Positions 1 to 24,881 of a stretch of DNA of 26,249 nucleotides are shown in pieces. The translations under genes were made by a program, and so were the position numbers. The first letter of the stretch is position 1; each line of letters starts with the position of its first letter. Under the pieces are notes generated by a model. The model worked only from the letters and a program-made list of their open reading frames with translations. It had not been told where the DNA came from and searched no databases. This DNA is from a virus (taxonomy: Duplodnaviria > Heunggongvirae > Uroviricota > Caudoviricetes), in IMG/VR virus record IMGVR_UViG_3300029517_000214, positions 1 to 26,249 of that record; one strand, written 5' to 3'.

Positions 1-1329
1 TCATTGCACTGGCACCTTCAGAGGGATCACCGGCACAAAGCCGGGATGCGTAATGGCATTACGCCGGATAATGTCCGCGTCACGCGCCGCGTTATCAAAC
101 CAGGTCGCCGCCAGCACCAGCGCGGGTAAAACCTCATCCGGCGTGCGCTGAATGATCCGTGCAGACTGTTCAAGGCGCGTGTTGATATCCGCATTCAGAT
201 CTGCTTTCACCCGGCGCAGCGCCAGAAACAGCGCATCACTGGTTGTACGGGACAACTCCTTATCAGTTGCCGTATTCAGTGTGTCGCGAATGTCGGTCAG
301 TTCTTCCCACGTTGGCAGGTCAACCGTGTTTTTTACCGCCGGTGCATTGTTCAGCACCGGATGCGTGACGGCAGGCCAGCCGGAGCTCTGCGCGGGTGTT
401 GTTGACTGCCCCACTGCGGCATTCTGCATCACCGCAGAAGTTGTTGGCGCAGGCAATCGGGTAACGGCATACGCCGCTTCGCTGATTGCAGTCGTACGAA
501 GGGTGCTGGCAACCATGTTACGCTGCTGCGTCGCTGTGGCGGTGGTTTTACTGTCCGTTTTCCAGACGCCGCGCGGTTGCAAATCGCTGCCGAGGCTGAC
601 ACCAGAAAGCGTTTTGATCATGGTGACCAGGTCGCTGGCGTTACCATAAAGGCGTTTCCCGGTACGCCACATTTTCTGCACCTGTTCAACGAAATTTTTG
701 CCTGACGATGGCGGCGGCAGAAGTACCGAGATATCCCCCTGCAACAGCCTGGCGGCATCCGATACGGCAGAATCCACCACTTTCATCGCATCAGAAACAT
801 ACCCCAGCATTATGCTGGCATTACCGATAACGTCGTTCTGCACGAAATCCGCCACACCATCGATACTGAAACCGCTGAAGCTGTCACTGATGCAGTCATC
901 CAGTGCAGAACAGGATGACATCAGCGTCTGCGCCGTCGCCGCACCTGATGTGGGGTAAGAGAGTTCTCCTGCTTCGACAAACTTCAGGTCAAAGCGGACA
1001 ATACGCCCTTCACTTTTCGATGTGCTGACCCGAACTTCCCCGTCAACACAGACTTTCAGCTCACCATATGTCGGGTGGACAAGCGTGCCGGGACCTGGTT
1101 TATTCAGCGCTTCAATCAGGCGATCGCGCTGGTCAAAGCAGTCATCTCCCACCACATAAGCCGTGATGGACGGGCGAAAAGTGATTTTCCCCAGGTCTTC
1201 GGTATAGGGTTTGTCGCGGTTCGGGTATTCATGTGTTTCCACACGGCGACCGGTTCCCGCACTTTCTTCTTCAACCTTAAACGGCACGCCGCGAAATGAC
1301 GCGTCCTGAAGCCTGTCTTTCCACGTCAT
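1..1329 (-). CDS. Mu-type DNA circulation protein (gp43/N-like), tail/baseplate-associated
   Basis: Complete 442-aa ORF with stop at 1..3. N-terminal MTWKDRLQDASFRGVPF resembles the DNA circulation N-terminal domain of Mu-like tail modules. Sits downstream of the tape measure as in Mu/SfV tails. Confidence 0.6.
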   Translation of the reverse strand: MTWKDRLQDASFRGVPFKVEEESAGTGRRVETHEYPNRDKPYTEDLGKITFRPSITAYVVGDDCFDQRDRLIEALNKPGPGTLVHPTYGELKVCVDGEVRVSTSKSEGRIVRFDLKFVEAGELSYPTSGAATAQTLMSSCSALDDCISDSFSGFSIDGVADFVQNDVIGNASIMLGYVSDAMKVVDSAVSDAARLLQGDISVLLPPPSSGKNFVEQVQKMWRTGKRLYGNASDLVTMIKTLSGVSLGSDLQPRGVWKTDSKTTATATQQRNMVASTLRTTAISEAAYAVTRLPAPTTSAVMQNAAVGQSTTPAQSSGWPAVTHPVLNNAPAVKNTVDLPTWEELTDIRDTLNTATDKELSRTTSDALFLALRRVKADLNADINTRLEQSARIIQRTPDEVLPALVLAATWFDNAARDADIIRRNAITHPGFVPVIPLKVPVQ

Positions 1330-1340
1330 ATATACTCCGA

Positions 1341-1370
1341 AAATTAAAAAGCCACCTATTAGAAGGTGGC
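1341..1370 (-). terminator. Rho-independent terminator for the moron gene
   Basis: Minus strand reads GCCACCT-TCTAAT-AGGTGGC (7-bp stem, plus 1351..1370) followed by TTTTTAATTTT (plus 1341..1350), 21 nt after the stop of ORF 1391..1921. Confidence 0.5.
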
Positions 1371-1390
1371 CTTGTAATGAATTTTATTAA

Positions 1391-1921
1391 TTAGCGAGTC
1401 AGAAACAACGAATCTTTATACTTTTGCTGTTGTTCATTTAAATACTTAGCTGTTTCATCGCTGGCAAATGGAAATATTACCGTATTTTTAGGCATGGTAA
1501 TTTCTTTTTTGTCCAGCGTCAGAGTAAACATAGGAACATACTGAGCAGAGTAACGCACCGCAGAAACGAGCTCTAGTTTAGACTCTTCAATAACACTTAA
1601 ATTATCCAGGCTAACTTTCTCTTCATCTTTTTTCTTTGACGCATTTAAAGTTTTTATTACTTTATTTAATTTCTCCTGAAAATCCTCCTTAAAGTTTTCA
1701 GGATTGCCGTCGACAACAAGAATCTGTTCACCCTGATTATCTGGAAAAATAATCTTTGCACTTATCAATTTATTTTCTTTATAAACATCACCAAGTTTTA
1801 TGGCTCCTCCAGATAACTGAATAATATGTTCATCTTTAAAGGAGATGTTGCCAGAGATTATGAGAGATGAAAAAATAGCCGCTGCTCCAAGAATTACACT
1901 TGCTGTGATATAGCCTTTCAT
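1391..1921 (-). CDS. Secreted/periplasmic hypothetical protein (moron inside tail operon)
   Basis: 176-aa ORF in a visibly AT-rich island. N-terminal hydrophobic signal-like segment MKGYITASVILGAAAIFSSLIISG with no lipobox cysteine. Flanked by its own promoter-like hexamers and a terminator. Confidence 0.6.
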   Translation of the reverse strand: MKGYITASVILGAAAIFSSLIISGNISFKDEHIIQLSGGAIKLGDVYKENKLISAKIIFPDNQGEQILVVDGNPENFKEDFQEKLNKVIKTLNASKKKDEEKVSLDNLSVIEESKLELVSAVRYSAQYVPMFTLTLDKKEITMPKNTVIFPFASDETAKYLNEQQQKYKDSLFLTR

Positions 1922-1956
1922 TTTTCGCCTATTAACATTTTTCTAAATGTGCATTA

Positions 1957-1984
1957 ATTCTATCACTCTATTTATGACTTACAA
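1957..1984 (-). promoter_or_regulatory. Candidate sigma70 promoter for the moron
   Basis: Minus strand TTGTAA (plus 1979..1984), 16-nt spacer, TAGAAT (plus 1957..1962), about 35 nt upstream of the ATG at 1921. Confidence 0.3.
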
Positions 1985-2012
1985 CCAGCAATACCTGTGA
2001 GGGGAATCCTGG

Positions 2013-3845
2013 CTACCAAAATCGGGTATAGCCAACATCGTGATTTATATCAATGCCACTGGAGCGTGTTTCCGTAACCCGCATACCTGGTGGCATATTT
2101 ATAAATGATACCTTGATCTCACCATCAACTTTTGGCGCGGTAGCTTTATTAATCATGAAGGGATTCGGACCTGTGGCACCGGAGGCGTTGTTTGCCTGAG
2201 CCGGATCCACCTCCGGATAAGGAGTGTATCCCCGTGGCGGTATTCCCGTCCCATAAGCATCATAAGCACCCGCGCCCCACTGCGCCGAGTTAATGGCATC
2301 GACCGTGTCACCGGAACTGTCGGTAAACCATTCAATAATCGGCTTCAGCTTATCCCACATATCCTGAAACCACTTAACAACCGGTCCCCAGTTATTGATC
2401 ACCATCCCCAGCGGCGACCAGGCAAAAACCTTCTTCAGAAGTTCCCAGCCAGCCTCAAAATAAGGACTAATGGTTTCCCAGAGCTTCTTAAAATAAGGTC
2501 CGACAACATCCCAGTTAGTGATAATTAATCCCGCAGCCAGGGCTATCGCCGTCGCAATCATGCCAATCGGCGTCATCGACATGATCCTGCTGACGATACT
2601 GATGGCACTGCCCACGCCCATCAATCCCAGTTTCAGAATCGCAAGACCGGCAGCAAGCCCGACGACGCCGCGAATAACCCGGGGATTTTCATCCGCAAAC
2701 TTCGTGAATTTTTCCCCTAACTCCCCCAGCCATTGCGTGATATTTTTGACGTCACCAGAAAATGCGCCGCCAATAGCCGCAAGGCCGTTAGTTGCGGTCC
2801 CCGTCATTGCCTCCCACAGGTTGGACAGCGTACCAAGCTGGGCCTGAACACGTTTATTCAGGCTGGCCTGTTTATTCATCTTCTGCTGGATCTGATCGTA
2901 ACCATCCTTTCCTTTATCGATCAGAGCATTGACCACCTGAAGGGTTTCGGCATCATCACCAAATATTGCCTTAAGTACACCGGTTCGCTTAACGTCGGTC
3001 AGTTTTCGCAGCTTTGCCAGTTGCCTGAACATGTTATCAAGACCGCCAAAACTCCCTTTGCCGTCAGTAAAATCGAGCTGTACCCCGAGTTTCTGGCGGG
3101 CCATAACTTTATTAACGTCCCTGATTTTCTTAACGCTTAATCCGGACTGGATAACTTTTCGCAGGGCATTACCTGCCGACTCCCCGTTCATCCCCATCTG
3201 ATCCATCATGACGCTGATGGGGGCAAGGCTCTGTGCAGCCTGAAGACCGTCCTTGTTCACCATCTTCAGAACAGAACTGGTTTTAGTGAAGAAGGACAAC
3301 ATGTTGGTATCGTCAACGCCCAGATAAAACGCCTTCTGGATAGTGTCGAACAGCCCCATCATGTCTTCTGACGCCGTTCCGGTAGCATCCTGCATCTTTG
3401 CAGCAAACTCAGCAGCCGCTTCCGGTGTTTTTTTCAGTTGTACCGCAAGATAAGCTGTCGCTTTACCCACACCGCCAAGAATATTTTCTGCCGGGATCCC
3501 CTGACGCACCAGCATCTGCATCATGTTCTGGAAATCAGCCGTTGTACCGGGTAGCTGGTTACCCAGGCCAATAGCCAGTTTATTGATGTCCTGAAAGCTC
3601 TTTCCGACCTCGCCGTTCGCATCCATCATGGCGACTTTCAGCCCGGTGGCGGCGTTTTCCTGATCGGCATAAGATTTCAGGGAAAGCGTCAGACCCGCTG
3701 CCAGTCCGCCACCAAGCGCCAGCCCACCCTGTGATGCTTCTTCCGCCTGGCGTTTAAATCCCCGGATTTTCTTTTGCATTTTCGACAGCGCGGGAGAAAG
3801 TCTGTCGACACCGGTGATCAACGCCTTAAGCTCAAATTCAGCCAT
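2013..3845 (-). CDS. Tail tape measure protein
   Basis: 610-aa ORF with Ala/Gly-rich helical N-terminus, internal hydrophobic segment and Trp-rich C-terminal repeats (WDVVGPYFKKLWETISPYFEAGWELLKKVFAW). Lies directly after the frameshifted chaperone pair. Confidence 0.8.
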   Translation of the reverse strand: MAEFELKALITGVDRLSPALSKMQKKIRGFKRQAEEASQGGLALGGGLAAGLTLSLKSYADQENAATGLKVAMMDANGEVGKSFQDINKLAIGLGNQLPGTTADFQNMMQMLVRQGIPAENILGGVGKATAYLAVQLKKTPEAAAEFAAKMQDATGTASEDMMGLFDTIQKAFYLGVDDTNMLSFFTKTSSVLKMVNKDGLQAAQSLAPISVMMDQMGMNGESAGNALRKVIQSGLSVKKIRDVNKVMARQKLGVQLDFTDGKGSFGGLDNMFRQLAKLRKLTDVKRTGVLKAIFGDDAETLQVVNALIDKGKDGYDQIQQKMNKQASLNKRVQAQLGTLSNLWEAMTGTATNGLAAIGGAFSGDVKNITQWLGELGEKFTKFADENPRVIRGVVGLAAGLAILKLGLMGVGSAISIVSRIMSMTPIGMIATAIALAAGLIITNWDVVGPYFKKLWETISPYFEAGWELLKKVFAWSPLGMVINNWGPVVKWFQDMWDKLKPIIEWFTDSSGDTVDAINSAQWGAGAYDAYGTGIPPRGYTPYPEVDPAQANNASGATGPNPFMINKATAPKVDGEIKVSFINMPPGMRVTETRSSGIDINHDVGYTRFW

Positions 3846-4256
3846 GTGTGCGTTTCTCCTGCTCTATCCTGTTTGCCTGACTGACCAGCAAGGGAATTTC
3901 ACTGATCGGCATATTCAGCAATTCGAAAGGATTAATGCGCCAGTAACTGGCGCAGTCAAAGAAGCGATCAGTGAGGTATTCAGCCGTCAGGCCTGGAGGA
4001 AAAAACCGGCCACAAGCCACGCCGCTGCATTCAGGTCTGCCGGAGACATCTGGTCGACAGAGTTTTGCGGCACTTTCGCCAGCCGCACAATGTATTTCGA
4101 TACCACATGCGCCAGAAGTCTGACTGACTCATCCTGATTCATCTGGTAGGGATACCCCAGCTCGCGGACATCTTTCCCGGTGGGCTCATCAAACTCAAGT
4201 ACGGAGAGTGTCTCGCCATGAGCAGTAATCGGTTTCTTTAACTCAAGCTCTTTCAT
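3838..4256 (-). CDS. Tail assembly chaperone -1 frameshift fusion product (GT-like)
   Basis: The -1 frame is open from 4020 to 3838 and reads FFPPGLTAEY... straight after the slippery heptamer at 3999..4005. Fusion stop at 3838..3840 abuts the tape measure start at 3845. Confidence 0.5.
3987..4256 (-). CDS. Tail assembly chaperone (G-like, zero-frame product)
   Basis: 89-aa ORF between tube and tape measure genes, ending ...AGFFLQA across a TTTTTTC slippery heptamer. Confidence 0.6.
   Translation of the reverse strand: MKELELKKPITAHGETLSVLEFDEPTGKDVRELGYPYQMNQDESVRLLAHVVSKYIVRLAKVPQNSVDQMSPADLNAAAWLVAGFFLQA
3999..4005 (-). promoter_or_regulatory. Programmed -1 ribosomal frameshift slippery heptamer T_TTT_TTC
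   Basis: Zero-frame codons GGT TTT TTC give the X_XXY_YYZ pattern; a downstream -1 ORF of 53 codons follows. Confidence 0.55.
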
Positions 4257-4612
4257 TACTGGTAATCCCCTTCTTCACCGTGGAACTCAAGATCAACCGT
4301 GCCTTCTTCGGCATTATGGTTCGCTTCGCCGTGCAGCCAGGCAGACGACAGTACATAGACCTGACCGTTCGCCAGCTCGGCAGTGATGGTCATCTCATCA
4401 GACGAGGTGATTTTGCTCACCGGAAAATTCTTCGGCACCTTGAAGGTCCCTTTGACATAGGGCGCACGGTGAGTTTCCTTGCGGTCCACTGAACCGTCCA
4501 GGCCGATGATGTCATCATTGACCGTCCTGTTCATGGGCACCTCAATGCCGCCGGTCAGCGATAGCTGCTGACCGTCAATTTTGAAATAACAGGTTCCCCC
4601 GATACGGGCCAT
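4256..4612 (-). CDS. Tail tube protein (Mu gpM-like)
   Basis: 118-aa ORF translationally coupled to the sheath gene (shared coordinate 4612) and followed by chaperone and tape measure; size and position fit a contractile-tail tube. Confidence 0.65.
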   Translation of the reverse strand: MARIGGTCYFKIDGQQLSLTGGIEVPMNRTVNDDIIGLDGSVDRKETHRAPYVKGTFKVPKNFPVSKITSSDEMTITAELANGQVYVLSSAWLHGEANHNAEEGTVDLEFHGEEGDYQ

Positions 4613-6108
4613 TATGCAGACTCCTCTGAATACTGAAGACGGAACTGGTTAACCACGGCAAAGACACGCAACTGGTTAACATAGTCAGGCGGGAACAGCG
4701 TGTTCAGGCGGTTCGGATCGCTGGCATCACGCTCCACAACCAGGTACTGCTTAAACAGTTCGTAGTTTTCCACGATCCCCGCACGCTCAAGCTGACGGTA
4801 GGTTGCCAGCAGTTCCCCTTTGATCACCGCCGGGGTGACAATCGCCTGACCGGGACCAAAGCGGGTACCGTCACTGGCAAGCTTGTGACGCCCGTACTTA
4901 CTGGTAATGACGGATTTCAGTTTGCGCAGTACATACGCGCTGGTATGCAGTGTCTCACTGTCGAGGTAGCTGTTATCCGCAACCCCGTAAGCGTTTTTCC
5001 TGTACGTGGTGACATCACGCTGAATGCGCAGTACCCCGCTTTCGACATACGCCGTTGCCACGCCATGAGACAGCAGGGTCTGTTGTTCGGTCATCGTGAA
5101 CCGTTTCCCCTTCGGCGCAGGCAGCATACCCACCAGCTCACCGGTCTGCGTGGGACGTGCCGGATCGTTGCGAATAAACACCGCTGCGCGGGCGGTACGG
5201 CTTGCCGCCAGTTCGTCGGCAGGCGTCTGGGTCTCTTTTTCGTACCCCGCCAGGGTAATGTGCTGCTGGTTAAACTGGTCACCTGCGGTCACCAGTTCTG
5301 ACAGCGTGCCGATCTTTGCCGTATACACATGACCATACAGCTGACGCGCATAGCTCCAGCGACCGCTGGTATCGTTCATCTCGGTCACCAGCGTGTTAAC
5401 GGAGGCCGTGTCGTTGAACGGCAGGCCGATATAATCAAACGGCTCATCCGCCATTGCAGCCACCGCGCCGGTGAGAACCGGAGCACCCGTTCCGGCGGTA
5501 CCCGTCGCCACGGCAATCTGTACGCCCGCTGGCAGCACTTCGCCCCCACCAAAGCCGTAGTAATTGAGGCTGACAGGAATTTCATTCCCGCAAAGCCCCT
5601 TATGACGCGCGGTCAGTGTGACCACACCTGCCGAAGATGAAGCCGTAAACGGCAGGGCCGGAACGGCATTGATGGCATCTTTGATACTGCTGGCAATCGT
5701 CGTGACGTTATCGCCGTTGGTCACCGGAGCCTGCACGCGGGTACGTCCCACATAGACATTCACCGTGCCGCTTTCGGTTGCTTCCCCGGTCACCGTCAGC
5801 GTAACCGTTGCCGCCGCGCCTGTGGCTTCCGGAACGGCAATCACATACAGCTCACCAAACGGGTCGGTCTGGCGATAAGCCTCGACCATACGCGCCAGCT
5901 GACTTCCCGCACCACAAATCTGGCGTGCATAGTCTGCCGACGGCATCAGCACCAGACTGTTGGCAACAATCTCTGCACCGTTACTGGCATGACCAATCAG
6001 CAGCGATGCTCCGCTGTCCTGTGCAGTATTCGCCGCCTGGTTATCCATTTCCGCATAAAACAGCGGAACCAGCGTATTCGACGGAATGGTGTTAAAGCTT
6101 ATCGTCAT
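4612..6108 (-). CDS. Tail sheath protein (Mu gpL-like)
   Basis: 498-aa ORF immediately upstream of tube/chaperone/tape measure; length and context typical of a contractile sheath. Confidence 0.75.
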   Translation of the reverse strand: MTISFNTIPSNTLVPLFYAEMDNQAANTAQDSGASLLIGHASNGAEIVANSLVLMPSADYARQICGAGSQLARMVEAYRQTDPFGELYVIAVPEATGAAATVTLTVTGEATESGTVNVYVGRTRVQAPVTNGDNVTTIASSIKDAINAVPALPFTASSSAGVVTLTARHKGLCGNEIPVSLNYYGFGGGEVLPAGVQIAVATGTAGTGAPVLTGAVAAMADEPFDYIGLPFNDTASVNTLVTEMNDTSGRWSYARQLYGHVYTAKIGTLSELVTAGDQFNQQHITLAGYEKETQTPADELAASRTARAAVFIRNDPARPTQTGELVGMLPAPKGKRFTMTEQQTLLSHGVATAYVESGVLRIQRDVTTYRKNAYGVADNSYLDSETLHTSAYVLRKLKSVITSKYGRHKLASDGTRFGPGQAIVTPAVIKGELLATYRQLERAGIVENYELFKQYLVVERDASDPNRLNTLFPPDYVNQLRVFAVVNQFRLQYSEESA

Positions 6109-6252
6109 CGGTGTTCACCTTTTTATTCACGCGCCGGATATCACCAGCTGCTTCACGGCGCAGCCAGTAGTTGTTCTCGTCAACATTTCGCCCTTCGGCG
6201 GGCAAAAGGTCGCTGCGGGCAGGGTCAGGCACTGACCGCCCTTTAACAGGTT
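6082..6252 (-). CDS. Small hypothetical protein (below the ORF-track cutoff)
   Basis: Hand-translated 56 codons from ATG at 6252 (MFVKPVKGRSVPDPARSDLL...KKVNTDDDKL); fills the gap between 6271 and the sheath gene and overlaps the sheath start by 27 nt. Confidence 0.25.
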
Positions 6253-6270
6253 TCACAAACATGAGGATCC

Positions 6271-6831
6271 TCAGGAAGGAATGGTTATTTCTGTGTGATG
6301 TTCGATATCGCCGTCAGGCCCGTTACCGGGATCGAGATAATCAACATCAATCGCCAGCGTTTGCAGTTCATCCAGACTGTTCAGATCATCCTGCTGGCGG
6401 GTATCGTCTTCAGTCAGCTCGCTGATGACCGAAAAATCGAACTGATAAATCAGCTCATGACGATTCAGATCCAGCAGCGTGCCGCCGTCATAGGTAATCG
6501 GGTTACCGCACGCCTCCGGGTTCCAGCCCAGCAGAGCCTTAAAGAGCATCTGCCGGACATCGTCCACCACATCATACGAGGCAAACTGACCGCGCTCATC
6601 ACGCCCGTTACTCAGTATGACAATCACGGAGAAACCCTCTTTCAGCGCCTGCCAGTAGTCGGTCTGGCTTTTGTTTTCTCCCGGAGAATCATCACCCGGT
6701 ACAACATATGCCGCCGGGAGTTTCAGCTTTCCGACCTCCGGCAGATTTTTGAACTGGGCCGCACCTGCAACCCGGTTTTCAAAATACGGACAGCGGGCAC
6801 GCAGTGCAGCAATAACAGGCGTCAGTTTCAT
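6271..6831 (-). CDS. Putative tail completion/terminator-type protein (head-tail junction module)
   Basis: 186-aa ORF, ATGA-type coupling with the upstream gene at 6828..6831; call is by position between head-tail joining genes and the sheath. Confidence 0.4.
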   Translation of the reverse strand: MKLTPVIAALRARCPYFENRVAGAAQFKNLPEVGKLKLPAAYVVPGDDSPGENKSQTDYWQALKEGFSVIVILSNGRDERGQFASYDVVDDVRQMLFKALLGWNPEACGNPITYDGGTLLDLNRHELIYQFDFSVISELTEDDTRQQDDLNSLDELQTLAIDVDYLDPGNGPDGDIEHHTEITIPS

Positions 6832-7334
6832 CTGTGTCGTCGCTCCGGCTTCAGTGATTTACGCAATTCCCGCGCCAGAAAATAGCGTGTCCAGCTGCGG
6901 TTCTTTTCAAGCGTTTCCATCATGAAGTTATTACGTGGAGCCAGTCGCCAGCCGCTGCCACCGGATGCACCACGATGATGGCTGCGACGACGCTTTGCCC
7001 CTCGCCTCACTCCATAGAACAAAAAAGCCGGATAAAAATCACCAGTGATACGGCGGTTTCCCTCTCCATTACGCTGGTTAGGGGCTATACGTGCCATAAA
7101 ACCAGGGCGATGTTTACTGGCTCTGGGTACCATGTAACCAATCGAACGAGCCAGGCGTCCGGTCTGATAACCGGGGTTTTCACCCGGTGCCGACCGCGCA
7201 CGGCGCATCACCAGCCGACGGGCATCACGCATATGACGCTGACCAATCGTGACAAACGCCCGCCGGACACGGGCGCGGTTAAAGCGCATCTCCGTGGGCT
7301 GCTGAAAATCAACGTGCAAAAAGGAAGTCGCCAT
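6828..7334 (-). CDS. HK97 gp10-like tail component protein
   Basis: Arg-rich basic protein in the head-tail joining block. Start uncertain; an internal Met (MRFNRARV) near 7289 would remove the overlap with the upstream gene. Confidence 0.45.
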   Translation of the reverse strand: MATSFLHVDFQQPTEMRFNRARVRRAFVTIGQRHMRDARRLVMRRARSAPGENPGYQTGRLARSIGYMVPRASKHRPGFMARIAPNQRNGEGNRRITGDFYPAFLFYGVRRGAKRRRSHHRGASGGSGWRLAPRNNFMMETLEKNRSWTRYFLARELRKSLKPERRHR

Positions 7335-7719
7335 TGCTGCCTCCGTGACTCTGCCTACATTCGCCCAGCTCCGTACACTCCAGCAGCAGAAAGCGCCGCG
7401 CTCCGTTCAGATCGCGCTGACGTTTCACCCGGTACACACTGTCACCGCAGACCACCTCATAATCAGCAGTGATCCCCCGGCGGTAACGAATGGTGATGTA
7501 ATGGGTGATGGCGTCTCCGGTCTGCGCGGTTTCCTGCCAGGTGGTGGCACTGGTCTGGATAACCTTCGCCCATGTACTGAACGCAACCGGGTATTGAGGC
7601 TCCACGCCAAAGTTATCTGCGGGCATATCCACCCGCTGGCGGATCAGGACGCGTTTATTCAGTTCACCGGGGTCCGGCAGAATGTAGGTTGCGCTGGTCT
7701 GTGCCTGGCTAATTTTCAT
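7309..7719 (-). CDS. Head closure / head-tail joining protein
   Basis: 136-aa ORF with 4-nt overlap to the gp6-like connector gene; position typical of HK97-type head completion genes. Confidence 0.5.
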   Translation of the reverse strand: MKISQAQTSATYILPDPGELNKRVLIRQRVDMPADNFGVEPQYPVAFSTWAKVIQTSATTWQETAQTGDAITHYITIRYRRGITADYEVVCGDSVYRVKRQRDLNGARRFLLLECTELGECRQSHGGSNGDFLFAR

Positions 7720-8045
7720 TGCGGAAAGTACCTGTACGGGCTGACAAGCCAGCCAAAACTCTGCGGCATGTCGAGTTTCTCCACTTCCGTAACCGACGAG
7801 CGGTTTTCGTAAAAGTGGCTGATAAGCATCAGCATCCCAAGACGAATATCATCCGGCAGGTGCAGCCCGTCCGGATCGCTGTCCGGAATGGATTCATCCG
7901 GTGCATAGAGCTTCCGGTTCAGATACGTTTCCGTCCGCTTTTGCGCCGCACAGGCCAGCAGTTGCAGATGGCGGTCATCGGCATCGAAATCCTCATCCAG
8001 CCGGAGTTGGGCTTTAATCTCTTCCAGTGTCAGAAGCATTCTCAT
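7716..8045 (-). CDS. gp6-like head-tail connector protein
   Basis: N-terminus LTLEEIKAQLRLDEDFDADDRHLQLLACAAQKRTETYLNRKL matches the characteristic gp6-like connector pattern. Confidence 0.65.
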   Translation of the reverse strand: MRMLLTLEEIKAQLRLDEDFDADDRHLQLLACAAQKRTETYLNRKLYAPDESIPDSDPDGLHLPDDIRLGMLMLISHFYENRSSVTEVEKLDMPQSFGWLVSPYRYFPQ

Positions 8046-8241
8046 CCCTCTTTACTGGCCGTGGCTTTTTCTCTTTTGCCGCTTTACTGCTTTTTGCACT
8101 GGTTCCGCGCTCTGCTAACCCGGCCTGAAGTGCAATCTCCTGCACCCGGGCAGGAAGCGCCCCGTCGTCATACTCACCGGCCCTAATAACCTCAACACGC
8201 ATACCGTCCGGTGACCATTTAAGATCTTGTTTCAGGATCAT
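8014..8241 (-). CDS. Small hypothetical head-module protein
   Basis: 75-aa ORF between major capsid and connector genes with a purine-rich RBS-like stretch upstream of ATG 8241. Confidence 0.35.
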   Translation of the reverse strand: MILKQDLKWSPDGMRVEVIRAGEYDDGALPARVQEIALQAGLAERGTSAKSSKAAKEKKPRPVKRDENASDTGRD

Positions 8242-14275: not shown

Positions 14276-14373
14276 ATGGAAAACTCCGGATAGAAATTAT
14301 GATAGAAACCATGTTATTTAATAGCGTTTCAATCCGTTAAGTAACAATGGTTATGCTCGTAAAGGACGCCCTG

Positions 14374-14763
14374 ATGACAAATAACTACATGAATGATTTC
14401 CTCAAATACTCACAGCCATATGTTCCAAAGGACTACAATCTTGCAAATGAATTTCATAGACGCCTTATATGCTGGATAAATGATTTTCACCGTGAACTTG
14501 AAGAAGAGTATGAGGTAGGAGGACAACTAGCTAGCTTTGGTAAAAACATTGAATTTCATTTCACAGACATAAGCTACTGGAATCCATCATTAATTTCTTT
14601 CATTGGTACTCTGGAGGATGGCAGTCCTGTAGAACTTGTTCAGCATGTATCTCAAATAAATGTCCTGCTAATCCGAAAAAAACGCTTATGCTTAGAGACC
14701 CCTAAAAGACCGATTGGGTTTGCTGATTGGGGTGAATACGACTCCTTTAAAGGAGATAATTGA
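14374..14763 (+). CDS. Hypothetical protein, opposite-strand moron at the bor position (possibly YbcV/YdfO-like)
   Basis: AT-rich plus-strand ORF between the spanin genes and the packaging module. Start assigned to the Met with an AAGGA RBS 8 nt upstream (MTNNYMNDF...); the longest ORF starts at 14347. Family guess is from memory of position and size only. Confidence 0.55.
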   Translation: MTNNYMNDFLKYSQPYVPKDYNLANEFHRRLICWINDFHRELEEEYEVGGQLASFGKNIEFHFTDISYWNPSLISFIGTLEDGSPVELVQHVSQINVLLIRKKRLCLETPKRPIGFADWGEYDSFKGDN

Positions 14764-16598: not shown

Positions 16599-17405
16599 CT
16601 ATTTCTTAATGATGCTATTTAACATTTCTAATGCAAAAAGCAACATGGAGCTAATAAAATACAATATAACCGCACTGGCAATCGCTCCAATTATAGCCTG
16701 GACACTCCAGTGAAAGTAATTTTTACCATTAATAACAAACTTAACACTAGGAAACAAAAAGTCGATAAGCTTAATTATTAATGGAATAGCAAAGCTCCAT
16801 AAGTTCGAAAACAAAATAAAGATACAAATAAATGATAAAGCAAATGCACCATCGATTGATAGTTTTGGCGCCAGTTTTGAGGCTGTCCATAAGCTAAGCA
16901 AAAAGCCAACTGTCACACCTGAAATCTGGATACTTAACATAGTCCAAGCTGTTCTAAAAAATCTAAATTTATTTTTGCACTTGTTAAGTAAATCCTGAAT
17001 CGTAATCCATAACGAGTCAACCCACTCATTATCTTCCGATGCTACAATCATTGTGCTGCTATTTGAATTCCTCTCATCAATTCGTAGCTCCATCCAAGAT
17101 CCATTCATCCTGTTAGACTGTCGACTTTGATAAGTTTCAATAGTAAAAATTATTTGATCAATCCTAGTGGCCTGTCTAAAGTATTTCACAAGCTCACCGA
17201 TAGAATCAACTTTATACCCCTTACCATCGAACAAAATAAAAAAAACACATTGAGCACAAACTTCCCTACTTTCCTTTTGAGCTTGCTCATTCATTTTAAC
17301 GCAGCGTTCGACAATTGCCGTGCTTAAGCTAATCAAGCTATCTTCATTTATAGAAACACCTGAAATATTCTTGCTTCTGTAAAAATATGACACTTTCGAT
17401 TCCAC
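16599..17405 (-). CDS. Hypothetical membrane protein: ~165-aa soluble N-terminal domain plus ~3 C-terminal TM helices
   Basis: 268-aa ORF in a strongly AT-rich island between Q/tR' and the holin; I recognise no family. Confidence 0.6.
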   Translation of the reverse strand: MESKVSYFYRSKNISGVSINEDSLISLSTAIVERCVKMNEQAQKESREVCAQCVFFILFDGKGYKVDSIGELVKYFRQATRIDQIIFTIETYQSRQSNRMNGSWMELRIDERNSNSSTMIVASEDNEWVDSLWITIQDLLNKCKNKFRFFRTAWTMLSIQISGVTVGFLLSLWTASKLAPKLSIDGAFALSFICIFILFSNLWSFAIPLIIKLIDFLFPSVKFVINGKNYFHWSVQAIIGAIASAVILYFISSMLLFALEMLNSIIKK

Positions 17406-17602: not shown

Positions 17603-17872
17603 TCAATGAGTGCTCATCGATGAATTTTTTTCAGCGCCAATCTCACTCAAAAAAGCAAAACCTTTTGACGTTATCTCATTAGCAATCAATCCACCTTCGG
17701 CAGATTTGCTTCGTATAACATCGATAAAACCTATATCAGCAAGATCTGAAATAGCAAAGTTAACCTCTTTTGCTGAGAGATGAGGTAATGATGCAGCCTG
17801 AATTCTAGAATCCTTTGGCTGCAATTCATTCACTCGACGTAGTATTTCAAGATGGATAGAGGTCAGTTTCAT
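17603..17872 (-). CDS. Small hypothetical protein, possible winged-helix DNA-binding fold
   Basis: 89-aa ORF in the same AT-rich island, same strand and upstream of the membrane-protein gene; helix pattern HLEILRRVNEL...EVNFAISDLADIGFI suggests a wHTH. Confidence 0.5.
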   Translation of the reverse strand: MKLTSIHLEILRRVNELQPKDSRIQAASLPHLSAKEVNFAISDLADIGFIDVIRSKSAEGGLIANEITSKGFAFLSEIGAEKNSSMSTH

Positions 17873-18852: not shown

Positions 18853-19838
18853 TTACGCCAGCACGCCAATTGCCAGCGCACGATCGATAAAACGAAATAT
18901 CAGCTCCAACTGGGAGCCATACTTTTCTTCAAATGCCACGGTATCCGCATGCAGATCGTCGTGATGCTTTCTGCACAAAGGCAACACAAAGAGGTCATGC
19001 GCTTTTGTACCCATTCCCCCCTGACCGTCGCCTATCAGGTGGTGGGGATCATCAGCAAGCTTTCCACAACATGCACACGGCTGTGTCTTAACCCAGCGCG
19101 TGTACTTTTCATTAGCCCAGCGGCGACGTTTTGGGCGTAACATAAAAGACTCCGGCGACTCCGGATCCACTTTCAGCGCCAGCACCTTTTTCGCCTTATC
19201 CTGGATGATGCTGGTGGCAGGAACCGAAGGCACAAGGTCACTTTCCCGGGTGACAGACGGCACAACAGGCTTCGGTAATCTCAGTGCCTTACGGGCTGCA
19301 CTTTCCGGTAAGGCATCCGCCAGGTCATTACGAACCAGCCACCAGCACAGTTCCGGCATTGTCACAACGTGACTATCATCAAAACCGAGATCCCGACGCA
19401 CAACAGACAATACCCAGCGGGCACAGTTATCCGTTGCCATTGATTCCAGCCGTTCCGTGAACTGATCGCGCAACTGGTTATCGCAGTGCCAGCACAGACG
19501 GATTGCGCCCGGCGCGTGTCGCATTGTGGTCATGTTCTCGCTGTGCCAGTCGGANNNNNNNNNNNNNNNNNNNNNNNNNAGCTTTCAAGACATTCCACCC
19601 CACCAGCACGACGAATCACTGCCTCATTACGGAACACGGCCCGAACGACAGGATCATCCGCCAGCGGTTGTGATGCCGCGGGAACGGCACCACTGGCGAA
19701 AGATGAATAATGCTCCGGCTCAGGCTCCAGCAGTACACGCCCCTGCATAAACAGGGGCATCAGCTCTGAACCTGGTCTGAACAATACGATCCCCATACGC
19801 GGGGCAATTTCAGGGGTCAGTAGTGCTCTCACGGTCAC
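18853..19838 (-). CDS. DUF968-like (YdfU-like) protein, interrupted by an assembly gap
   Basis: Two ORF pieces (19530..19838 and 18853..19533) flank the N-run. The C-terminal part has a Cys/His-rich region (QPCACCGKLADDPHHL...CRKHHDDLH). Position directly upstream of Q matches ydfU next to quuQ in Qin. True length and frame across the gap are unknown. Confidence 0.5.
19556..19579. other. Assembly gap (24 N)
   Basis: Run of n characters in the sequence. Confidence 0.99.
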
Positions 19839-20656: not shown

Positions 20657-20905
20657 TCAGGCGGCTGCACCCGCCGTTTTCTCGTACTTACTGATAGTGA
20701 TCTCGACCTTCCCTTCCGGGATAACCGGTCCCCACTCCACCAGCATTCTTTTCACCTGACTGTCGTCTTCCCACACCCCCGCGTGGGTCAGGGCGTCAAA
20801 CAGCGCCTTGTTATAGTTGTCCAGATCGCGGATCCTGTTAGCGTGGATGCAATGGCAGTGTGGCACGTTGATTGCCAGTACATCCCTACAGAAAGCCTGA
20901 TTGAG
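20657..20905 (-). pseudogene. rusA: rusA (Holliday junction resolvase) 5'-truncated remnant
   Basis: C-terminal ~70 residues (ANRIRDLDNYNKALFDALTHAGVWEDDSQV...) align to the RusA C-terminal half. The frame opens only 13 codons upstream of a GTG with no RBS; about 40 N-terminal residues are absent. Confidence 0.55.
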
Positions 20906-21304
20906 TCAGATTGCACTGCGTATGTGGCCTACAAAAAAGGTAGCTGGAACGGCAACGATGTTTACTGGCTTCAACACGGTGGATTGCCAACAGATGACTT
21001 CAGTAAAGCGACCATCTTTAGCGTCGCCAACAAAAACGAACCAGGAATAGTTTGGTTGCCATTTTCCATTGCTGATGCAGCAAAGCGCAGGACGTTCAAT
21101 ATCAATAACTTTAACCGCAGAACAATGGTTCAGGGCGCAGGTTTGGTCATGCCTGACTGGTTGAAAGAGCAGAACAGAAGAAAGAAGTCGCGAAGCGGGA
21201 AGGTGCGTTGGAATTGTCCGCATTGCGGAAAAATCTCCTGGCAGTACAGCCCATATGATTTTGAAGGCTGTAGTGATTACAACTGTGAAGGATGGCGAGA
21301 ATGA
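20852..21304 (+). CDS. Hypothetical early protein with C-terminal Cys-rich zinc-ribbon-like tail; start uncertain
   Basis: Plus-strand ORF open from 20783 (GTG), overlapping the rusA remnant antisense; first ATG at 20852, alternative GTG at 20924. C-terminus NCPHCGKISWQYSPYDFEGCSDYNCEGW. Confidence 0.3.
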   Translation: MAVWHVDCQYIPTESLIESDCTAYVAYKKGSWNGNDVYWLQHGGLPTDDFSKATIFSVANKNEPGIVWLPFSIADAAKRRTFNINNFNRRTMVQGAGLVMPDWLKEQNRRKKSRSGKVRWNCPHCGKISWQYSPYDFEGCSDYNCEGWRE

Positions 21305-21897
21305 CAATTGACTATCAGGCACTGCGTGATGCGGCAGAAGCAATAAAAATAGCAGCCACACCACAAAAATTGCTGGCATTTCGTATGAAGGTCACACCTC
21401 AGGTTGTGCTGGCACTACTGGATGAACGGGAAAGGAACCAGCAATACATCAAATCCCGCGACCAGGAGAACGAGGAAATTGCGCTAACGGTAGGGAAGCT
21501 GCGCGTTGATCTGGAAGGCAAAGACAGCAAAATAGCCAATCTTACCGCCGAACGCGATGCTCTTCGTGAAGGTGAGATGGGCGACGCTAGGCATAGCAAC
21601 ACACGGGCCGCAGCTGATATCTACTTCCAACTGGTCGAGGAGTGCGAAATTCCTGCTGGCGGATCTCTGGTCGAGTACGTTGACGATATGCGCGAGAAGC
21701 TGGAAGCCGCAGAGAAGCGCATTGCTGAGCTGGAGTTGCGGGAGGTTGTGCTTCCGCAATGCTATAGCATGTTGCATCGCGTCGATTTTGACGAGCCTTA
21801 CCACACTGAAATGGTTTACAGGCAGCATCAGGTTCTTGAGGCACTGCACAACGCTGGAATAAACGTCACCGAAGCATGTAAAGGAGAGGCATCATGA
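21301..21897 (+). CDS. Ea22-like coiled-coil early protein
   Basis: Start MTIDYQALRDAAEAIK with AAGGA RBS and ATGA overlap with the upstream gene; coiled-coil segments such as LEAAEKRIAELELRE. Family call is from memory. Confidence 0.45.
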   Translation: MTIDYQALRDAAEAIKIAATPQKLLAFRMKVTPQVVLALLDERERNQQYIKSRDQENEEIALTVGKLRVDLEGKDSKIANLTAERDALREGEMGDARHSNTRAAADIYFQLVEECEIPAGGSLVEYVDDMREKLEAAEKRIAELELREVVLPQCYSMLHRVDFDEPYHTEMVYRQHQVLEALHNAGINVTEACKGEAS

Positions 21898-22379
21898 GCA
21901 CTATCACAAGAGAATGGCTGCAGCAGGCTATCAACGATTATGAAAGCGTTCGTGATGAGCTTCCTTTCGGGCTTGATGATTACCAGGGGAATATCCTGGC
22001 TGCCCTGCGTATTGCACTGGCATCGCTGGAAGCAGAGCCGGTGGCGTGGAAGGTAACATTCACGCAAATTGACCGTGAATATAACACGTTCACTGGTATG
22101 TATTCTGACAAAGCAGAAGTCGAACGGTGGGTGCGGCTGCATAAAGCATGTAATTTTCGGGCAGATATAACACCGCTTTATACCGCCCAGCAAGTGCCGG
22201 TAACTCCGGATGGTTGGGTTATGGTGACGAAGGAGTTAACCCCGGAAATGATGAGAGCCGTTCAGATTAGAAGTGAGCTTGGAGGGTATGCCACTTCCAA
22301 TCTATCTGGTGCATACAATATGTTTTCTGAGTTCTGGAATGTTGCTGTCTCAGCTGCGCCTAAGATGGATGATTTATGA
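21894..22379 (+). CDS. Hypothetical early-left protein
   Basis: 161-aa ORF with AGGAG RBS, ATGA coupling to the upstream gene and coupling to the downstream Lar-like gene; no recognisable motif. Confidence 0.5.
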   Translation: MSTITREWLQQAINDYESVRDELPFGLDDYQGNILAALRIALASLEAEPVAWKVTFTQIDREYNTFTGMYSDKAEVERWVRLHKACNFRADITPLYTAQQVPVTPDGWVMVTKELTPEMMRAVQIRSELGGYATSNLSGAYNMFSEFWNVAVSAAPKMDDL

Positions 22380-22678
22380 ATCTATATCGCTGCCCATTCT
22401 GTGGTTCCACTGTGCTTAACATCGGATACTCATTCAGTATCAGAGGGAAAATGCGCTATGTGTCATGCAAATGTGGTGCCCAAGGACCAGAAAAACGAAC
22501 TAAATCTGAAGCGATTTCTTCATGGAATAGTCGAATGAAAGTATGGGTTTATGATCCAGAAACCATATTAAACGCTGAAGAGCGCAGGAGAACGGAAGTC
22601 TATATTCATAACCTTAATGAAGATGGATTTACACCAGTGCTTGTAAAGGCTACTCCGCAGGAGGTTAACCATGGCTAA
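22376..22678 (+). CDS. Lar-family restriction alleviation protein
   Basis: MNLYRCPFCGS...YVSCKCGAQGPEKRTKSEAISSWNSR matches the Lar-family zinc-ribbon pattern (CPFCG ... CxCGAxGP ... AIxxWN); carries a ~40-aa C-terminal extension. Confidence 0.7.
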   Translation: MNLYRCPFCGSTVLNIGYSFSIRGKMRYVSCKCGAQGPEKRTKSEAISSWNSRMKVWVYDPETILNAEERRRTEVYIHNLNEDGFTPVLVKATPQEVNHG

Positions 22679-22778
22679 CCTGCAACTTGCCGTCAAAGGT
22701 GAATAACAATCCTCGCACTCGCGGGGATTTCTTTTATCTGAACTCGCTACGGCGAGTTTTGTTTTATGGAGATGAAAA

Positions 22779-22946
22779 ATGCACTTCCGAGTCACAGGTG
22801 AATGGAATGGAGAACCATTCAACAGAGTTATCGAAGCGGAGAACATCAATGACTGCTATGACCACTGGATGATATGGGCGCAGATAGCACATGCAGACAT
22901 AACCAATATTCGATTTGAAGAACTGAAAGAACACCAAGCCGCCTGA
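22779..22946 (+). CDS. Small hypothetical protein (55 aa, below the ORF-track cutoff)
   Basis: Hand-translated MHFRVTGEWNGEPFNRVIEAENINDCYDHWMIWAQIAHADITNIRFEELKEHQAA with GGAG RBS 7 nt upstream; its stop overlaps the next ATG. Confidence 0.35.
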   Translation: MHFRVTGEWNGEPFNRVIEAENINDCYDHWMIWAQIAHADITNIRFEELKEHQAA

Positions 22947-22972
22947 TGGCGGTTTTTTATTGGAGACAAGAA

Positions 22973-23317
22973 ATGTCAGATTTGGCTATGAAGATTTTGA
23001 AATGGCAATCGACTGGCGATGTCGGCATCAGTAGCGCAACTCTTGCCTCAATCGCGTGTGGACTGAAAAAGAATATCTATGGTCATCACTTCGGCGCTCC
23101 ACATGACGCAGCCGATTTCCGACGATGCGTTGCACTTGTTGAGCAGATTCCAGAAATCAGAGATTCATTCGACAAGGTTGCAAAGCGCGTTCCGACATTC
23201 AAAGGCATCCTCAACGAATGGGATTCCCTCGTTGCTCTGTTGAAGTCTGAAATGAAGATACACGGAAACAAAGCACCAGAGACTTACAGAAGAATTAGCG
23301 AGTTACGCAAGGACTAA
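22973..23317 (+). CDS. Hypothetical protein
   Basis: Start taken at MSDLAMKILK with GGAG RBS rather than the ORF-track start at 22946; no recognisable motif. Confidence 0.45.
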   Translation: MSDLAMKILKWQSTGDVGISSATLASIACGLKKNIYGHHFGAPHDAADFRRCVALVEQIPEIRDSFDKVAKRVPTFKGILNEWDSLVALLKSEMKIHGNKAPETYRRISELRKD

Positions 23318-23406
23318 CCACAGCCTCACACTCGATGAGGCCTGTTCATTTCTCAAGATATCCAGACCTACAGTAATCATGTCAATCCAATAAATGGAGA
23401 CTCCAA

Positions 23407-23754
23407 GTGGAAGAAGAAATCTTCACTCGTGAAGAGGCTGCGTCGTATCTGAAGGTAGACAAAGGCACTATCACGCAGTGGATACGAAGTGGACGACTTC
23501 AAGCCGCAAAGATAAATCCAGATAAACCTAAAAGCCCATATCGCATTTGCAAGTCAGACTGCATTGCGGCGCTTAAGTCTGTGAGACACAATGGCGCGGT
23601 GAATGCGGTTGATGTGCAGGAGGTTAAAGCATGTCAATCAAACTGCGCGGTGGCACATGGCACTGCGATTTCGTCGCGCCAGATGGATCAAGAGTTAGAC
23701 GCTCTCTTGAAACATCGGACAAGAGGCAAGCGCAAGAACTTCACGATCGTCTGA
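23407..23754 (+). CDS. xis: Excisionase-like DNA-binding protein (Xis)
   Basis: GTG start with GGAG RBS; N-terminus FTREEAASYLKVDKGTITQWIRSGRLQAAKI fits excisionase/AlpA-type HTH; immediately upstream of and overlapping int. True 3' end uncertain. Confidence 0.6.
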   Translation: MEEEIFTREEAASYLKVDKGTITQWIRSGRLQAAKINPDKPKSPYRICKSDCIAALKSVRHNGAVNAVDVQEVKACQSNCAVAHGTAISSRQMDQELDALLKHRTRGKRKNFTIV

Positions 23755-24791
23755 AAGCAGAAGCGTGGAGAGTAAAAAATCTCGGGGAATCACCGAAAAA
23801 GCTATTCAAGGAAGCCTGCATACGGTGGCTGCGTGAGAAATCGGATAAGAAGTCCATTGATGATGACAAGAGCATTATATCGTTCTGGATGTTGCACTTC
23901 AGAGAAACCATTCTCTCTGACATAACAACAGAAAAAATAATGGAGGCGGTAGACGGGATGGAAAACCGCCGCCATCGCCTGAACTGGGAGATGAGCCGGG
24001 ATAGGTGTTTGCGGCTTGGCAAGCCAGTGCCGGAGTATAAACCAAAGCTGGCAAGCAAAGGAACGAAGACGCGGCATCTGGCAATACTTCGCGCTATTCT
24101 CAATATGGCTGTTGAATGGGGATGGCTTGACAGGGCGCCCAAAATATCAACACCACGCGTTAAGAATGGACGAATCAGATGGCTTACAGAGGAGGAATCG
24201 AAGCGCCTGTTTGCAGAAATTGCTCCTCATTTCTTCCCTGTGGTCATGTTTGCAATCACGACAGGCCTTCGTCGTTCCAACGTTACAGACCTTGAGTGGT
24301 CACAGGTCGATCTGGATAAGAAAATGGCATGGATGCACCCTGATGAAACAAAAGCTGGCAATGCGATCGGAGTTCCTCTTAACGAAACCGCATGCCAGAT
24401 ATTAAGAAAACAGCAGGGGCTCCATAAGAGATGGGTATTTGTCCACACCAAACCTGCCTACCGAAGCGACGGAACAAAAACAGCAGCGGTAAGGAAGATG
24501 AGAACCGACAGCAACAAGGCATGGAAGGGAGCGTTAAAGCGGGCAGGCATTAGCAACTTCCGCTTCCATGACCTGAGGCATACCTGGGCAAGCTGGCTGG
24601 TTCAGTCCGGTGTCTCTCTTCTTGCACTTAAAGAGATGGGAGGATGGGAAACTCTCGAAATGGTTCAAAGATACGCCCACCTTTCAGCTTGGCATCTCAC
24701 CGAGCACGCGAGCAAAATCGATGCGATTATAAGTCGCAATGGCACAAATACGGCACAAGAGGAGAACGTAGTTTACTTAAATACGAGGTAA
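23631..24791 (+). CDS. int: Tyrosine-type site-specific integrase
   Basis: 386 aa with C-terminal catalytic motifs (HDLRHTWAS; LEMVQRYAHL with the catalytic Tyr); AGGAGG RBS; stop 14 nt from the tRNA 3' end. Confidence 0.9.
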   Translation: MSIKLRGGTWHCDFVAPDGSRVRRSLETSDKRQAQELHDRLKAEAWRVKNLGESPKKLFKEACIRWLREKSDKKSIDDDKSIISFWMLHFRETILSDITTEKIMEAVDGMENRRHRLNWEMSRDRCLRLGKPVPEYKPKLASKGTKTRHLAILRAILNMAVEWGWLDRAPKISTPRVKNGRIRWLTEEESKRLFAEIAPHFFPVVMFAITTGLRRSNVTDLEWSQVDLDKKMAWMHPDETKAGNAIGVPLNETACQILRKQQGLHKRWVFVHTKPAYRSDGTKTAAVRKMRTDSNKAWKGALKRAGISNFRFHDLRHTWASWLVQSGVSLLALKEMGGWETLEMVQRYAHLSAWHLTEHASKIDAIISRNGTNTAQEENVVYLNTR

Positions 24792-24805
24792 CTTATTGAT
24801 TTAGA

Positions 24806-24881
24806 TGGTGCCGATAATAGGAGTCGAACCTACGACCTTCGCATTACGAATGCGCTGCTCTACCAACTGAGCTATATCGGC
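24806..24881 (-). tRNA. thrW: tRNA-Thr (anticodon CGT), thrW-type
   Basis: Hand-folded cloverleaf: acceptor GCCGATA/TATCGGC, D arm GCTC/GAGC, anticodon stem GCGCA/TGCGC with loop TTCGTAA, T arm GTAGG/CCTAT, encoded CCA. Confidence 0.9.

Follow-up and report, generated by a model that had tools for sequence, protein, structure and literature searches.

The Caudoviricetes record IMGVR_UViG_3300029517_000214 of IMG/VR, analysed here over its positions 1–26,249 and referred to below as the window, carries a block of four plus-strand genes at 21894–23317 that an earlier note had read as a possible counter-defence island around a Lar-family anti-restriction gene. Our analysis indicates that this is probably an ordinary accessory block of the lambdoid exo-xis (ea) region, mosaic in its make-up and stranded without a promoter in a decaying SfV/SfII-like prophage at thrW. 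A check of the list of open reading frames (ORFs) confirmed the four genes at the positions that the note had given: an EaA/DUF551-family mosaic gene of 161 amino acids (aa) at 21894–22379, a Lar-like gene of 100 aa at 22376–22678, ORF55, a 55-aa copy of lambda orf55 (lambdap35), at 22779–22946, and ORF114, a 114-aa copy of ORF114 of phages 434 and HK022, at 22973–23317. All of these components are already present in public phage genomes at 96–99% identity, and the Lar annotation is a routine one.

The block lies upstream of xis and int, as the earlier note had stated, and profile matches place both genes on the plus strand: the excisionase gene xis at 23407–23754 (PF12728 HTH_17, 35.3 bits; full-length match to phrog_2907, E 5e-51) and the tyrosine integrase gene int at 23631–24791 (PF00589, 120 bits; phrog_1). 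The early-left placement is likewise borne out, since the block is the part of a lambdoid early-left (pL) operon that lies nearest to xis. Past int, a minus-strand tRNA-Thr(cgt) gene at 24806–24881 marks the integration site and is followed by proA, while directly ahead of the block stands a plus-strand Ead/Ea22-like gene of 201 aa at 21292–21897 (PF13935, 64.1 bits against a cut-off of 27, profile positions 2–139 of 139; phrog_250). The remainder of the window is taken up by an SfV/SfII-like late prophage region, which runs on the minus strand in the order tail, head, terminase, lysis, Q, DUF968/HNH, KilA-N and rusA, and shares about 96% identity with SfII, SfV and their relatives.

The four genes had been described as tightly coupled, which is true of the upstream part of the block only: ATGA overlaps at 21894–21897 and 22376–22379 join the Ea22-like gene to the 161-aa gene and the 161-aa gene to the Lar-like gene, whereas ORF55 and ORF114 are set apart by terminators. 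The 100-nt gap between the Lar-like gene and ORF55 holds two plus-strand hairpins, namely an intrinsic terminator equivalent to tL4 of HK022 (22708–22736; a 9-bp stem followed by a T run, aligning with the annotated tL4 of X51962) and a second terminator-like hairpin (22740–22767; an 8-bp stem followed by TGTTTTAT). A strong intrinsic terminator on the same strand (22936–22963; GCCGCC/GGCGGT stem, then T6), annotated as a rho-independent terminator in HK140, overlaps the stop of ORF55 and sits just upstream of the ORF114 start, and a further terminator-like hairpin lies 3′ of ORF114 (23323–23349, plus strand), at the position of an annotated phage 434 terminator. Terminator-like sites are enriched in the region, with 14 found against 4.5 expected. 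By analogy with lambda, only N-modified RNA polymerase that started at pL would pass such a series of terminators in an intact phage. There, pL would transcribe the block and N antitermination would carry the transcript past tL4 and two further terminators, so that synthesis of the block proteins would begin within minutes of infection or induction.

In the window, the upstream part of this operon is missing. The rusA gene survives as a minus-strand 3′ fragment (20657–20839, codons 70–129 only) that is 100% identical to residues 70–129 of SfII RusA and lacks residues 1–69; the minus-strand ORF at 20657–20866 matches positions 77–123 of 124 of PF05866 only. Homology to SfII and its relatives stops at 20840 and the early-left homology of other phages starts at 20835, and these breakpoints define a deletion or recombination junction at 20835–20840 between the late/nin side and the early-left block. 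On the far side of the junction lies a 5′-truncated plus-strand gene resembling P7 upf87.6 (20841–21304), whose ORF, read from GTG 20783, covers only positions 63–220 of 222 of phrog_2457; a longer form of it is present in one of the metagenome contigs described below (L012). In SfII, about 6.9 kb with cI, cro, cII, replication genes and dam separates xis from the equivalent point in rusA, and none of this interval is present in the window. The prophage is therefore defective: pL, N, cI, cro and the replication genes were lost with the deletion at about 20840. The DUF968/HNH gene (18853–19838, minus strand), a single 329-aa ORF in SfII, is split in the window into frames of 102 aa and 226 aa with a break near 19554–19581 that disrupts SfII residues 85–96; the gene has probably become a pseudogene through a frameshift, which would be the second indication that the prophage is decaying. 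With rusA truncated at codon 70, about 6.9 kb gone and DUF968/HNH frameshifted, the element differs from an intact, inducible prophage.

The deletion joined codon 70 of rusA to the interior of an early-left gene upstream of the block, which it left as promoterless cargo. A simple consensus scan of the plus strand ahead of the block revealed no sigma-70-like promoter. The earlier assumption that these genes are expressed early in the usual way is thus not upheld for the window, where the deletion took pL, N and the repressor; because promoter and antiterminator are deleted, the block cannot act there as an early programme.

The junction is spanned by none of 50,697 phage records and none of 5,426 complete E. 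coli genomes, and its exact 40-nt pattern had no match in species-representative genomes. The same junction was found at 99.9–100% identity in four human-gut metagenome contigs from independent assemblies (L009–L012), and it is not an assembly artefact because four metagenome samples carry it. Three of these contigs (L009–L011, at about 700–8200 of each locus) diverge left of window position 20578, where only a tail-fibre-assembly fragment is left, followed by a UvrD-like helicase and its 212-aa partner, by AbiTii and by the reverse transcriptase and effector of retron Ec48; the remnant adjoins proA, proB and phoE. These three contigs show the same remnant in a more advanced state of erosion, next to a defence island at proA–thrW. 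The fourth contig (L012, 4195–6034) is 100% identical to window 20658–24851, and beyond that, where the window has the 5′ part of tRNA-Thr and then proA, it has a gene for an AraC-family regulator; it may represent the same element at another site, or an attP or tandem form. Homology of the window with both SfII and L012 ends at 24851, the boundary of the att core in tRNA-Thr. The window captures a thrW prophage part-way through step-wise decay.

On the evidence of blastn, recombination has assembled the block from modules, each with 95–99% identity to sequenced phages or prophages. From left to right, 21406–22217 matches the E. coli D1 prophage (98.3%) and 21405–22033 matches HK140; 22197–22775 matches Sf6 (98.6%); 22700–23371 matches HK022, 434 and D1 (95–96%), with 22703–22962 matching lambda (96%); and a match to mEp213 and mEp043 (96.4%) begins at about 22702 and continues at least as far as 23760, where the query ended. 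Each piece is common, yet no phage record and none of the 5,426 complete E. coli genomes covers at least 80% of 21292–23760.

The position of the Lar-like gene is a variable cassette site: in E. coli D1 (L022, 3995–4273), a 92-aa DUF4752 gene occupies the exact Lar slot of an otherwise collinear prophage. The joint on the upstream side of the Lar module is PVTPDGW (22197–22217). At the downstream side, the Lar-like protein ends in TPQEVNHG (window 22655–22678) where DUF551 proteins end in PPQEVNRG (alignment A5); DNA homology to HK140 resumes at 22655, inside the 3′ end of the Lar-like gene, and homology to HK022 and D1 resumes only at 22700–22702, past its stop. We read the common PQEVN ending as a recombination joint inside coding ends, although the blastn matches of D1 and HK022 start downstream of the Lar stop.

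The genes of the block are real rather than chance ORFs, given the many homologues of each and pairwise ratios of non-synonymous to synonymous substitution (dN/dS) of 0.11–0.46. The individual values (ORF55 0.11–0.46, ORF114 0.15–0.23, Lar-like gene 0.28) agree with purifying selection, as estimated from very few substitutions.

The assignment of the gene at 22376–22678 to the Lar family, with a C-terminal extension, is well founded. The protein passes the curated cut-offs of both Lar models (TIGR03655, 59.5 bits against 39.6; PF14354, 36.1 bits against 28.6), which its residues 2–54 span entirely, and phrog_599, ‘Lar-like restriction alleviation protein’, matches residues 1–99. It is 99% identical over the full 100 aa to Sf6 gp20, labelled Lar-like in RefSeq, and 34% identical over 53 aa to Lar (RalR) of the Rac prophage of K-12, the only experimentally studied member of the family. 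Both proteins have a CPFCG...C.C zinc ribbon and an EA..WN.R motif; across the long-form subfamily and Rac Lar, the zinc-ribbon cysteines C6, C9 and C33 are invariant and C31 is nearly so, and E45, A46, W50, N51 and R53 of the second motif are invariant as well. In Rac as in the window, the lar gene lies in the early-left region near xis–int of a defective lambdoid prophage.

The two proteins differ in length, Rac Lar having 64 aa and lacking the extension. At 100 aa, the window's protein exceeds the about 55–65 aa of a single-domain Lar protein, and its extension amounts to about 46 aa, against the ~40 aa that the earlier note had estimated. These residues (55–100) are conserved at 65–98% identity in a narrow Escherichia/Enterobacter subfamily, with the consensus MKVWVYDPETL..ERRRT..YI..L..DGF.P, and because of this conservation we regard the 46-aa extension as a real domain and not as read-through. 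Judged by its profile matches, the 100-aa protein is a subfamily variant of Lar, a genuine family member that its size does not exclude. An apparent truncation of the protein in contig L009 (a 75-aa call) was rejected as a start choice of the gene caller, the DNA being identical over window 22360–22460.

In K-12 without Lar, restriction by EcoKI is stronger, and both Rac Lar and lambda Ral are believed to boost de novo methylation by a mechanism that is unknown (PMC3177214). By homology, the Lar-like protein most likely alleviates type IA (EcoKI-like) restriction. That its 46-aa tail gives it a target range other than that of Rac Lar is conceivable but improbable. If the homology to Lar holds, the expected phenotype would be the same as that of lambda Ral (PMC3177214; PMC12707154). 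Ral is, however, a different protein family, and a Pfam scan of the block gave no Ral-family match. In lambda, the ral gene lies elsewhere in the left operon, near N.

The three neighbours of the Lar-like gene, which had been put down as unrecognised, all have close relatives: ORF55 is lambda orf55 (96% identity), ORF114 is phage 434 ORF114 (96%), and the 161-aa protein belongs to an EaA/DUF551 prophage family in which we found 3,268 homologues. Homology to structural or replication proteins, which the earlier note had named as evidence against its own proposal, emerged for none of them.

In alignment A5, the 161-aa protein consists of a variable leader (residues 1–40), a nearly invariant core (41–108) that runs from ALASLEAEPVAW to PVTPDGW, and a swappable C-terminus (109–161). 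Most relatives have DUF551 (PF04448) as their C-terminal module, whereas the window's protein has a 53-aa alternative of unknown fold, swapped in after PVTPDGW; a Pfam search with it gave no match to any family at E up to 0.1. With the EaA/‘DUF551 domain-containing’ proteins of E. coli and Shigella, which carry PF04448 at that place, it has in common residues 1–108 at 90–100% identity and both joints. ‘DUF551 domain-containing’ is also the NCBI name of 161-aa proteins 97–99% identical to it (clusters P0066–P0084), despite the absence of the domain; precomputed Pfam annotation gives the 161-aa clusters no family and gives PF04448 to relatives with the other C-terminus, and the name seems to stem from relatives with which these proteins share only the N-terminal 108 residues. 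An AlphaFold2 (AF2) model of the protein shows two helices and a beta-beta-alpha-beta unit in residues 1–97, with predicted local distance difference test (pLDDT) values of 70–88, and falls below 50 for residues 98–161.

Over its last 60 aa, the protein has 97% identity with the C-terminus of Sf6 gp21. In Sf6 genes 21–20, the module before the Lar-like gene is thus 97% identical to that of the window and ends in the same overlapping stop and start, but it closes a protein of Ead/Ea22 type, whereas in the window it closes one with an EaA/DUF551 core. Downstream of its Lar-like gene, Sf6 has gene 19 and a TorI-like xis, unlike the window.

ORF55 is identical to lambda orf55 at 53 of 55 residues, the two substitutions being conservative, and is matched over its entire length (1–55 of 55) by phrog_676 (E 3.6e-38). 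Homologues are present in 434, HK022 and HK140, and in these phages as in lambda the gene has the same position just upstream of the xis region and the same flanking terminators as in the window; in lambda, however, orf55 directly precedes xis, whereas in the window ORF114 lies in between. A published model shows lambda Orf55 as a small alpha/beta protein (PMC8614690); a sequence search of the PDB with ORF55 returned nothing significant.

ORF114 is 96% identical to its counterpart in phage 434 and 99% identical to the HK022 copy, and phrog_1229 matches it at full length (E 1.2e-51). Its start at ATG 22973 is favoured by a GGAG at 22962–22965, an alternative reading of 123 aa from ATG 22946 being possible. 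Phages 434, HK022, mEp213 and mEp043 have ORF114 at 96–99% identity in the same ORF55–ORF114–xis order, while the xis–int that follows it in the window is of the mEp213/mEp043 type and not of the lambda/434 type. A profile search of 1.84 billion cluster representatives (50% clustering) recovered 2,918 relatives at E ≤0.001 and 717 at E ≤1e-10, mostly stand-alone proteins of 110–130 aa from phages of Proteobacteria and Actinobacteria, Mu-like phages and Pseudomonas megaplasmids. They occur in early or accessory gene arrays of the Mu-like phage SuMu, the Nonanavirus PJ16, many Vibrio phages and an Arthrobacter phage, as well as on 126 plasmids, mostly Pseudomonas megaplasmids, where their neighbours are arrays of hypothetical genes.

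Six residues (S20, P43, D45, D48, R51 and C52) are the same in all of 66 diverse representatives of this family and may form a catalytic or ligand-binding pocket. A Pfam scan of the 66 stand-alone relatives matched no family, and a PDB sequence search with the 66-member profile gave no significant match. The AF2 model of ORF114 is all-helical, with seven helices (pLDDT 92.9; predicted template modelling score 0.86); a fold search with it found no significant match in the PDB, and its matches in BFVD were only to uncharacterised viral proteins, such as those of a Clavibacter phage and a giant virus. ORF114 thus belongs to a large, uncurated family; that this family has a fold not yet solved by experiment and serves, as an enzyme or an inhibitor made early by phages and plasmids, to disarm a common host defence is conceivable but improbable. 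Among 33 longer relatives scanned with Pfam and PHROGs, the only recognisable fused domain was a tRNA nucleotidyltransferase with HD, in the single protein P0290 (558 aa), which has a PolyA_pol head, RNA-binding and HD domains (phrog_2244) and a C-terminal ORF114-like domain. The fusion may be a functional hint or may have arisen in gene calling; fusion to a tRNA nucleotidyltransferase (CCA-adding enzyme) would fit a role of ORF114 against tRNA-targeting defences. In phage vB_EcoP_phi419 (L019, 3001–3832), the first 56 codons of ORF114 (93% identical) are followed by a DNA methyltransferase gene, and the same 56-codon remnant is found in Stx phage P27; in phi419, the slot of ORF114 beside the integrase gene has undergone a mosaic replacement.

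Taken as an ordinary exo-xis/ea block left behind in a decaying prophage, the window would contain, in ORF55, ORF114 and the 161-aa protein, genes that most likely serve early modulation of host physiology or of lysis–lysogeny rather than structural or replicative functions, in keeping with exo-xis genes as early genes that influence lysogenisation and induction (PMC3824215, PMC7093339, PMC8614690). Several points weigh against this interpretation. The activity of the Lar-like protein may differ from that of Rac Lar because identity is 34% over 53 residues and the 46-aa domain has no counterpart in Rac Lar. Silence of the block is concluded from a simple scan, and weak or non-sigma-70 promoters, or read-through, may still express it. 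Finally, the block persists at 99.9–100% identity in the more decayed remnant, which fits recent descent and also retention for the benefit of the host. A possible, if doubtful, alternative is that the neighbours are regulators of lysis–lysogeny or of host transcription and physiology, like Ea22, orf60a, orf61, orf63 and orf73. Their exo-xis location and the Ea22-like gene at the start of the block speak for it, as do the published phenotypes, Ea22 favouring lysogeny and other exo-xis genes altering lysogenisation and induction (PMC7093339, PMC3824215), and lambda Orf55 has been modelled as a possible T7 Gp2-like modulator of RNA polymerase, in a model that its authors themselves call speculative (PMC8614690). 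However, relatives of ORF114 occur in virulent-type phages (Nonanavirus), which make no lysogeny decision, and the likeness to Gp2 comes from a published model. The counter-defence island proposed earlier, in which Lar would block restriction and the 161-aa, 55-aa and 114-aa proteins would each inhibit another defence early on, seems unlikely to us. It draws on the early-left accessory position with a bona fide Lar-family gene, on a Lar slot that varies between phages (DUF4752 in D1) with a turnover typical of arms-race genes, on ORF114 relatives in accessory arrays of unrelated phages (SuMu, PJ16, Vibrio phages) and on plasmids, on the DNA methyltransferase gene in the ORF114 slot of phi419, and on accessory-gene screens that recover counter-defence genes, including Ral, from such regions (PMC12373910). 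However, none of the neighbours matches a known anti-defence protein by homology or fold, published exo-xis phenotypes concern lysogenisation and induction rather than defence, and in the window's prophage promoter and antiterminator are deleted. A PADLOC-DB scan of the block gave no match except one at chance level, of PbeC to the coiled coil of the Ea22-like protein (E 0.005, 13.6 bits), PDB sequence searches with all four proteins yielded nothing significant, and the four block peptides were not found in the accessible part of the supplements of a screen of 200 accessory genes (PMC12373910). A counter-defence role of the neighbours can be put forward as a hypothesis, which no result links to them or refutes.

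Two further explanations concern the remnant itself. The block could be domesticated, kept for a benefit to the host such as tempering of its own type I restriction and expressed from an unrecognised promoter, which we consider somewhat less likely still than the counter-defence island. All its reading frames are intact, the same junction and block recur at 99.9–100% identity in four metagenome samples, including the version without nearly all late genes beside retron Ec48, AbiTii and a UvrD-like helicase, and removal of Lar from K-12 raises EcoKI restriction (PMC3177214). Near-identity of the contigs, however, most simply reflects recent common ancestry and carries no signal of selection; no promoter was found, and the arrangement occurs in 0 of 5,426 complete E. 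coli genomes at a coverage of at least 80%. Least probable of all, and by a clear step, is that the Lar-like gene is the toxin of a type I toxin–antitoxin system of the RalR/RalA type that stabilises the remnant and has no anti-restriction function. This would account for a block unchanged in the more decayed remnant, and Rac Lar is indeed also reported, under the name RalR, as a non-specific DNase toxin neutralised by the small RNA (sRNA) RalA (PMC4041452), a report that likewise counts against a purely anti-restriction role in our preferred interpretation. Identity to RalR is only 34%, however, and where Rac has the antisense sRNA RalA, with rcbA downstream of the toxin gene, the window has neither, and ORF55 follows the Lar-like gene. 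With the K-12 ralA and xisR–rcbA–ralR region as query, blastn gave only chance matches of 10–18 nt in the window (E at least 0.74), and an Rfam scan of the window found tRNA only.

Such a block is standard in lambda, 434, HK022 and Sf6, and it stands here in a dead prophage, so the importance of this particular copy is limited. ORF114, and to a lesser degree orf55 and the long-form Lar, are abundant, conserved and uncharacterised, which makes them candidates for anti-defence and host-takeover screens. If it is true that the long-form Lar alleviates type I restriction, a function known from a single study of 1995 would extend to a common prophage gene.

Elsewhere in the window, two minus-strand genes of unknown function (16599–17405 and 17603–17872) lie between the Q antiterminator gene and the holin genes; one matches phrog_30208, and the other matches phrog_32916 and has a sub-threshold match to DUF2513. 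This position is where lambdoid phages carry morons such as stx. PADLOC matched neither of the two genes. On the plus strand, opposite to the late genes, an ORF of 138 aa (14347–14763; phrog_3306) lies between an HNH endonuclease gene and the Rz/Rz1 spanin genes and may be a moron.

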